In this document: positions 39,046 through 39,693 of the stretch, in pieces | How positions within the stretch are numbered: position 1 is the first letter of the stretch | How the letters are laid out: every line of letters starts with the position of its first letter | Assembly: GCF_003334315.1 (NCBI RefSeq) | Contig: NZ_QOWR01000007.1 | DNA length: 64,000 nucleotides | Reading direction: 5' to 3' (one strand) | Source: Escherichia coli | GTDB taxonomy: Bacteria > Pseudomonadota > Gammaproteobacteria > Enterobacterales > Enterobacteriaceae | Position numbers and translations under genes: made by a program | Notes under the pieces: model-generated | Told to the model about the DNA's origin: nothing | The model's input: only the letters and a program-made list of their open reading frames with translations | Databases searched by the model: none

Positions 39046-39693
39046 ATGTATCTTGATACCAGCAACGTACAGAGCCTGAAGGAAAAGCTGCTGTTATGCG
39101 CGGTTAATGAATTTGCCGAATATGGTTATGAAGGGGCCAGGGTCGATAATATTGTTAAGGCTGCGGGGTGTAGTAAACAGACGGTTTATCATCACTTTGG
39201 TAATAAAGAAAATTTATTTATTGAAGTACTGGAATATACCTGGAACGATATTCGACAAAAAGAAAAGGCCCTTGATTTCTCAGATCTTCCGCCACAAAAA
39301 GCTATTGAGAAAATTATTGATTTTACATGGGATTATTATATTGCTAACCCCTGGTTTTTAAAAATTGTGCATAGTGAAAATCAAAGTAAAGGTGTGCATT
39401 ATGCAAAATCACAGCGTCTCTTAGAAATTAACCATGCGCACTTGCAGTTAATGGAATCCTTATTGGATGAAGGGAAGAAACACAATATTTTTAAGCCAGA
39501 TATCGACCCATTGCAGGTGAATATTAATATTGCTGCGCTTGGGGGATATTATTTGATCAACCAGCATACGCTTGGCCTGGTTTATCATATCAGTATGGTT
39601 TCCCCCCAGGCACTGGAAGCCAGACGTAAGGTCATCAAAGAGACGCTCCTTAGCTGGCTTTTGGTTGATCCTTCATCTACTGCGCACGAATAA
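39046..39693 (+). CDS. TetR/AcrR-family transcriptional regulator
   Basis: 215 aa from ATG 39046 (GGGGAAG 5 nt upstream); N-terminal [31 protein letters not shown]; divergent from the catabolic operon; AT-rich coding sequence. Confidence 0.8.

Follow-up and report, generated by a model that had tools for sequence, protein, structure and literature searches.

What does an abrupt drop in GC content within a bacterial gene cluster tell us about the origin of its genes? This question is raised by seven accessory genes in a 64 kb stretch of an Escherichia coli genome (contig NZ_QOWR01000007.1; the whole stretch, which spans nnr to ytfT, is referred to below as the window), bounded by the core genes rplI (30864-31313) and ytfB. 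Segment 39046-39693 on the plus strand is the exact coding sequence of one of them, a TetR-family regulator. It is divergent from a six-gene minus-strand operon encoding a short-chain dehydrogenase/reductase (SDR), a TIM-barrel protein, a crotonase, a CoA-transferase, a flavoprotein and a major facilitator superfamily (MFS) transporter. A first-pass annotation, made by eye from the sequence, took the AT-richness of the TetR and MFS genes to suggest horizontal acquisition, possibly in more than one step.

The explanation that we favor, with a probability of about 0.7, is that an accessory catabolic operon has long occupied one chromosomal site, from the rplI terminator to ytfB, and consists of three modules that have different histories and that therefore form a compositional mosaic. 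The TetR gene has long accompanied the operon, and its low GC content is old and stable and not the scar of a recent transfer.

Composition and conservation of the regulator

GC content by codon position was computed for the 61 intact genes of the window, with the 54 flanking genes serving as the comparison set (mean GC 0.523, standard deviation (sd) 0.037; mean GC at third codon positions, GC3, 0.571, sd 0.065). The TetR gene has a GC content of 0.395 (GC1 0.505, GC2 0.287, GC3 0.394), 3.46 sd under the flank mean, and has both the lowest GC3 and the lowest optimal-codon fraction (0.423) of all 61 genes. Compared with 300 simulated genes that kept its own amino acids and used the pooled codon usage of the flanks, TetR is 5.5 sd low in GC3 and 6.1 sd high in codon-usage distance. 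We rejected AT-richness as a general trait of the E. coli TetR family, as nine K-12 members have GC contents of 0.44-0.57 (mean 0.509), all above 0.395. The regulator and its surroundings comprise the following features.

38835-39045, no strand: divergent promoter region, GC 0.370 (seven versions from three genera aligned)
38902-38923: 22-bp palindrome ATCAACCA-N6-TGGTTGAT with perfect 8-nt arms, a putative TetR operator
38925-38940, minus strand: predicted CRP site TGTGATCACTATCGCA, an exact match, unique in the window and one base from the palindrome
39046-39693, plus strand: TetR-family regulator of 215 aa, the full-length form of the K-12 pseudogene ytfA, with both TetR-family domains present (Pfam TetR_N PF00440 at 3e-14, residues 19-61; TetR_C_29 PF17938 at 9.8e-30, residues 83-200)
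39677-40315, minus strand: core gene ytfB, the right edge of the locus, whose 3' end overlaps the TetR 3' end convergently by 17 bp

Klebsiella oxytoca, Salmonella enterica and Klebsiella spallanzanii carry the same seven genes, in unchanged order, between rplI and ytfB. Entomohabitans teleogrylli carries an eight-gene version at the rplI-ytfB site (the seven plus a MaoC gene), and in Escherichia albertii the same genes adjoin ytfB on a contig that ends within the flavoprotein gene. This list of genera is a minimum, drawn from the matches listed in a scan of genome contigs. The 17-bp overlap between TetR and ytfB is identical in E. coli, Salmonella and K. oxytoca, and the palindrome is kept in all seven spacers from these taxa, which average only 53% column identity. 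Amino acid identity between E. coli and Salmonella or K. oxytoca is 87-94% for TetR, SDR, TIM-barrel, crotonase and CoA-transferase (81-96% for TetR over all genera and forms), and the third-position identity of these genes (0.51-0.61) resembles that of the flanking genes ytfE, cycA, fklB, ytfB and the ula genes (0.44-0.62). Shared synteny, flank-like divergence and a conserved palindrome thus argue for an old unit made up of the regulator, the enzyme genes and the probable operator. Among the TetR matches listed, Alphaproteobacteria hold homologues of 37-42% identity, none of them beside the same enzymes, and only one acidobacterial metagenome-assembled genome has a TetR-SDR-crotonase-CoA-transferase arrangement; its TetR gene is GC-rich (0.595).

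The low GC content of the regulator recurs in every genus sampled, with the following GC and GC3 values.

E. coli: 0.395 and 0.394
E. albertii: 0.394 and 0.386
Salmonella: 0.410 and 0.449
K. oxytoca: 0.421 and 0.447
K. spallanzanii: 0.427 and 0.464
Entomohabitans: 0.393 and 0.411

The GC3 of the SDR, TIM-barrel and CoA-transferase genes follows the host: E. coli has 0.53-0.58 and K. spallanzanii 0.68-0.71. Because synonymous sites are saturated between genera, the stably low GC3 of TetR is no leftover of a recent transfer. Third-position single-nucleotide polymorphisms (SNPs), polarized by parsimony among five E. coli-clade ingroup sequences with E. albertii as sole outgroup, are consistent with this. 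In TetR we counted 33 AT>GC and 26 GC>AT changes, which imply an equilibrium GC3 of 0.44 (current value 0.38-0.39), compared with 122 and 210 in the enzyme genes and 30 and 55 in the flanks (implied equilibrium 0.39-0.42, current value 0.54-0.55); per-site substitution rates are alike for all three. The excess of AT>GC over GC>AT changes, relative to resident genes, that would mark amelioration was looked for in TetR and not found in this small SNP sample. TetR sits at the composition predicted by the local substitution pattern, with no amelioration under way, an observation that we treat as supporting rather than decisive. Taken together, the shared site and operon in other genera, the flank-like divergence, a GC content of 0.39-0.43 throughout, the retention of the putative operator in E. 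coli, Salmonella and K. oxytoca and the balanced substitutions contradict the proposal that the low GC content of TetR reflects a separate or recent acquisition.

Three compositional blocks

The remaining features of the locus are listed below, with GC and GC3 values for each gene.

31334-31366, plus strand: rplI intrinsic terminator, the left edge of the variable region; all alternative cassettes diverge right past its T-run
31370-33017, minus strand: transporter cassette (MFS gene, AT-rich spacer and last 78 flavoprotein codons), exchanged as a unit in other genomes
31415-32692, minus strand: MFS transporter, ACS/ExuT-like, 425 aa (NCBIfam TIGR00893 at 315 bits, under the cut-off of 395); 0.472 and 0.495
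32785-34857, minus strand: FAD_binding_2 flavoprotein of the fumarate-reductase/aspartate-oxidase superfamily, 690 aa (Pfam PF00890 at 1.7e-27); 0.526 and 0.518
32785-33021, minus strand: C-terminal 78 codons of the flavoprotein gene, AT-rich and hypervariable, as judged by composition and comparison across forms
34854-36395, minus strand: family I CoA-transferase, YdiF/FadX-like, 513 aa (NCBIfam NF052271 at 1.2e-113, below its cut-off; PF01144 recorded for orthologues); 0.530 and 0.531
36405-37181, minus strand: crotonase-family enoyl-CoA hydratase, 258 aa (NCBIfam matches); 0.495 and 0.517
37191-38033, minus strand: xylose-isomerase-like TIM-barrel protein (AP_endonuc_2), 280 aa (PF01261 recorded for orthologues; closest solved structures PDB 3QC0 and 3JU2, about 7e-85, both uncharacterized); 0.550 and 0.580
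38043-38834, minus strand: SDR, 263 aa, the first gene of the operon (NCBIfam NF009386 at 420 bits, over the cut-off of 250); 0.542 and 0.549

The five enzyme genes are host-like (GC 0.495-0.550), and the MFS gene is mildly AT-rich, its GC3 lying 4.6 sd below that of simulated genes. Within the flavoprotein gene the composition changes from a GC content of 0.553 over codons 1-500 to 0.393 over codons 613-690 (GC3 0.308), and the 92-bp spacer between this gene and the MFS gene has a GC content of only 0.283. The locus therefore divides by GC content into a transporter cassette (31370-33017, 0.446), an enzyme block (33018-38834, 0.534, compared with 0.523-0.534 in the flanks) and a regulatory block of promoter and TetR gene (38835-39693, 0.389), with atypical composition limited to 2.5 kb of the 8.3 kb. 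As a description of composition the first-pass annotation was accurate. It had put the TetR gene at roughly 40% GC, had called the MFS gene and its flanks AT-rich and the CoA-transferase and crotonase genes close to the E. coli average, and had regarded only the 5' part of the flavoprotein gene as host-like; TetR and MFS are the genes that deviate most from the codon usage of the flanks.

AT-rich patches also occur in core DNA, so that low GC content by itself is no marker of accessory DNA in the window. Four of the six 600-bp stretches with a GC content below 0.43 lie in core DNA, and the core genes yjfI (0.383), yjfL (0.436) and ytfK (0.430) come near the value for TetR. The core patches are rlmB-yjfI-yjfJ (14501-15600, minimum GC 0.353), yjfK/yjfL, the ulaG/ulaA divergent promoter (24101-25050, 0.387) and ytfJ-ytfK (49651-50300).

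Exchange of the transporter cassette

The locus is nearly identical (about 100% over the 9.5 kb queried, window positions 31000-40500) in several complete E. coli genomes, such as NZ_CP059283. Its distribution within the species is patchy, the island interior being found in 3173 of 5426 complete genomes (about 58%), and it exists in more than one form. The MFS form is present in approximately 1661 complete genomes, while in 1444 a three-gene dctPQM transporter of the tripartite ATP-independent periplasmic (TRAP) type (GC 0.41-0.45) replaces the MFS cassette. BLAST alignments of the two forms break at 31373 and 33017. The second breakpoint corresponds to about codon 612 of the flavoprotein gene, where the GC content falls, and flavoprotein identity between the forms is about 90-100% before this codon and about 50% after it. 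When six E. coli configurations were aligned, the sequence was invariant up to 31366, the end of the terminator, and unrelated from about 31367-31373. The alternatives found at the transporter end in E. coli are MFS, TRAP, MFS plus MaoC, and yjfZ.

In a rare configuration (form C), a deeply divergent island lies within E. coli flanks. Its flanks are 90-100% identical to E. coli at the nucleotide level, while its island is only about 75% identical in the TetR, CoA-transferase and MFS genes. These three genes are closest to Entomohabitans (88%, 86-87% and 91%, respectively), and the SDR, TIM-barrel and flavoprotein genes are closest to Escherichia. In form C the crotonase gene is absent and a MaoC dehydratase gene is present after the MFS gene (L009, L010); the crotonase and MaoC genes appear to be interchangeable.

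The transporter end also varies in other genera. The window MFS protein is only 51% identical to the MFS proteins in the same slot of Salmonella and K. oxytoca, a pair that share 90-91% identity. Its identity is 89% with the K. spallanzanii protein, 78% with that of Entomohabitans and 77% with that of form C. Between K. spallanzanii and K. oxytoca, DNA identity is about 87-90% over the rest of the locus and only 64.5% over the MFS gene; as the drop is limited to the MFS cassette, we conclude that an independent transporter swap with the same bounds took place in Klebsiella. All ten taxa examined have an AT-rich flavoprotein tail (GC 0.36-0.48, compared with 0.54-0.60 over codons 1-500), whose sequence varies strongly, with about 50% identity between cassette forms. 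Outside the locus, the window MFS protein is 47% identical to K-12 ExuT and 83% identical (85% over the local alignment) to an uncharacterized Providencia MFS protein encoded beside the hexuronate genes uxaC/uxuA/uxuB, and about 83% identical to an Edwardsiella protein. The gene has a GC content of 0.40 in Providencia and 0.60 in Edwardsiella, and a low-GC donor for the MFS gene was rejected on this basis. No donor can be named, since relatives are equally close at both GC extremes and synonymous sites are saturated.

For the idea of acquisition in more than one step, these results have a divided outcome: it is upheld at the transporter end, where interchangeable cassettes share breakpoints at the rplI terminator and at about flavoprotein codon 612, and for replacements of the whole island, and it is not upheld for TetR.

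Several further observations concern this end of the island. A promoter-like site, TTTAAA-17-AATAAT, lies at 32784-32812 on the minus strand, in the last flavoprotein codons and just upstream of the 92-bp spacer that precedes the MFS gene; from this motif, the transporter cassette may have a promoter of its own. In about 1040 complete E. coli genomes a hipB/hipA-like toxin-antitoxin module lies between rplI and the MFS gene; the window does not have it, and hipA was frameshifted in the single hipBA-like example inspected (L104 1590-3353). In strain E70 (L006 5996-8844), a truncated MFS gene and a truncated cpdB gene are linked by an IS1 element, with the intervening genes inverted in order, which indicates an IS1-mediated rearrangement starting in the island. 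IS1 copies also lie within the island or within the TRAP genes of some other genomes.

The K-12 state

K-12 is without the island, and the interval from 31369 to 39291, a position inside the TetR gene, is filled there by yjfZ (GC 0.424) and a 102-bp SDR remnant. The K-12 pseudogene ytfA corresponds to the final 403 bp of the TetR gene (39291-39693) and retains only the ligand-binding domain, TetR_C_29. In this respect K-12 resembles the window, from which it differs in the replacement of the six operon genes and the TetR DNA-binding domain. The ytfA sequence is 97.6% identical to the window TetR gene and 99.4% to another E. coli allele, while the adjoining SDR remnant (3588-3689 of the K-12 locus L004, window 38644-38745) is 82% identical to the window. 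This disparity suggests, as the source of the yjfZ segment, a lineage whose island was already divergent or decaying, and one crossover inside TetR.

The yjfZ gene (L004 2629-3423) is absent from the window strain and present in 2539 of the 5426 complete E. coli genomes; the counts for the different forms add up to more than 5426 because some genomes match the yjfZ query plus an island query. It has been published as a 'conserved signature' target for quantitative polymerase chain reaction in E. coli and Shigella (PMC11057252).

Proposed history and alternative explanations

In the history that we propose, the regulatory module (promoter and TetR, 38835-39693) would have been linked to ytfB and the enzymes since before the sampled enterobacterial genera split, and its AT-richness would be a gene-specific stable state near the local substitution equilibrium and not unameliorated foreign DNA. 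The enzyme block (SDR, TIM-barrel, crotonase, CoA-transferase and most of the flavoprotein) would follow the GC content of each host. The transporter module, comprising the flavoprotein tail and transporter genes, would have been exchanged repeatedly by homologous recombination among alternative AT-rich cassettes, and in some lineages the island would have been wholly replaced or lost. Several findings weigh against this history. Amino acid identity between the Salmonella and Klebsiella copies (88-93%) matches that between Salmonella and E. coli, so that the species tree is not cleanly reproduced; this makes past intergeneric exchange at the site, by way of the conserved flanks, likely in place of purely vertical descent. 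The island is sporadic in Salmonella as it is in E. coli. The SNP polarization draws on five ingroup sequences and one outgroup, contains few TetR changes and ignores recombination. Finally, the tests applied here leave the low GC content of just TetR, the flavoprotein tail and the transporters without an explanation.

The alternative closest to the first-pass annotation is that TetR and MFS are recent, separate acquisitions from low-GC donors that have not yet ameliorated. These two genes do deviate most from flank codon usage, in a locus that is accessory and carried by 58% of complete E. coli genomes, and the MFS gene is non-orthologous (51%) to its counterpart in Salmonella and K. oxytoca and has relatives of 83% identity in low-GC Providencia. 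However, a gene of GC 0.60 in Edwardsiella is equally close at 83%, with synonymous sites saturated, and the same type of MFS protein occupies the same slot in K. spallanzanii at 89% identity. For TetR this explanation is largely refuted by its position and low GC content in four other genera, an operator shared by the three genera aligned, flank-like divergence and substitutions balanced without an AT>GC bias. As a whole we regard it as very improbable. An equally poor candidate is that the mosaic is ordinary gene-to-gene variation in composition, devoid of historical or functional meaning. The core genes of similar GC content and the location of most AT-rich patches outside the island speak in its favor; yet the GC step in the flavoprotein gene (about 33020) falls within a few bases of the recombination breakpoint at 33017 and of the switch in identity from at least 90% to about 50%, and TetR lies 5.5 sd under the expectation for its own amino acid composition.

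Somewhat less remote, though still unlikely, is active selection for AT-richness in the promoter and TetR gene, either as a tract for H-NS binding or nucleation that silences the operon or through non-optimal codons that limit translation of the repressor. H-NS prefers AT-rich DNA, over a range that includes a GC content of about 0.389, the value found over the 859 bp of this module. Low TetR GC3 has been kept in five genera while adjoining genes shifted with the GC content of the host, none of the nine K-12 family members sampled is as AT-rich, which makes the gene atypical of its class, and its optimal-codon fraction is the lowest in the window. In addition, genomic systematic evolution of ligands by exponential enrichment (SELEX) flagged H-NS in the K-12 yjfZ/ytfA spacer (PMC3946193), but this spacer is rearranged relative to the window sequence, so the evidence does not come from the window sequence itself. 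Synonymous divergence of TetR is not reduced relative to its neighbors, and its per-site substitution pattern equals theirs, so that staying at about 0.40-0.44 requires no special force; the question shifts to why a GC-raising force that acts elsewhere is absent from TetR. Candidates are very weak selection on codon usage, or selection for AT-rich DNA (H-NS, low translation). A broader proposal is that the low GC content of promoter and TetR is a selected, conserved regulatory property across Enterobacteriaceae, over hosts whose GC3 ranges from about 0.57 to about 0.70, and that the operon specifies a CoA-dependent pathway, so far undescribed, acting on a sugar-acid-like or alicyclic carboxylate, with non-orthologous replacement of its uptake and hydratase steps (MFS/TRAP, crotonase/MaoC) within one species; as a combined claim this is unlikely.

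Regulation, function and significance

A CRP peak from chromatin immunoprecipitation with sequencing (ChIP-seq) covers the site TGTGATCACTATCGCA in enterotoxigenic E. coli (ETEC) H10407, between an 'ETEC-specific' gene and ytfA (PMC4287617), and CRP would activate the operon. TetR would repress it from the conserved palindrome, which in this model would overlap the -35 region of the operon promoter, next to a CRP site of class I. An anionic carboxylate substrate would enter by the MFS or TRAP system, be activated as its CoA thioester and then be acted on by the SDR, the TIM-barrel enzyme, the hydratase and the flavoprotein. Judging from the transporter family and the set of enzymes, our guess is that the substrate is a sugar-acid-like or alicyclic acid. 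Our literature searches found no paper on the function of the operon, and the locus itself appears to be undescribed so far, while the phenomenon is of an ordinary kind.

The locus shows low GC content to be a poor guide to recent transfer, as its most AT-rich gene is the most stably linked part and the module that is really exchanged, the transporter end, is only mildly AT-rich. It also accounts for two oddities of K-12, the pseudogene ytfA and the gene yjfZ, a 'conserved signature' marker that about half of complete E. coli genomes lack. Moreover, it flags an uncharacterized CRP-bound operon in about 58% of E. coli, for which the natural swaps of transporter and hydratase could guide a substrate search.

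Elsewhere in the window, cpdB (46224-48187, minus strand) is split over two reading frames, with longest open stretches of 380 and 305 aa, and is thus a frameshifted pseudogene; it is also annotated as a pseudogene in the near-identical record NZ_CP059283. Rfam matches above gathering score lie outside the island: an RpsF leader (29792-29876), the small RNA (sRNA) ES239 (48188-48310), STnc450 (51662-51719), ES036 (51799-51841) and naRNA4 (60825-60903). No Rfam family was found within the island.

Relation to known systems

The arrangement of the regulator resembles that of TetR repressors with a divergent catabolic operon, such as RutR/rut and AcuR/acu, in its TetR_N and TetR_C domains, its divergent orientation and its conserved 22-bp palindrome (the putative operator) beside a CRP site in the shared promoter region. 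It differs in that the window gene is, at 0.395, far more AT-rich than the nine K-12 family members (0.44-0.57).

With classical genomic islands the locus shares its patchy distribution within the species and parts with atypical GC content and codon usage. It differs in having none of their mobility hallmarks: there is no tRNA gene anywhere in the 64 kb window, only short repeats at chance level and no meaningful direct or inverted repeats flank the island, and none of the seven island genes, all of which are metabolic, transport or regulatory, is an integrase or mobility gene. It differs further in its mostly host-like GC content and its synteny in other genera at the homologous site. The locus fits instead the flexible islets at E. 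coli recombination hot spots, with which it has in common a fixed site between core genes, mutually exclusive gene contents, the lack of integrase, tRNA and att repeats, polymorphism above that of the flanks and AT-rich variable cassettes. It departs from these islets in that at least four other genera have its core, TetR and five enzymes, at this very site, and the locus accordingly behaves more like an old operon that is often lost and re-exchanged than like a strain-specific insertion.

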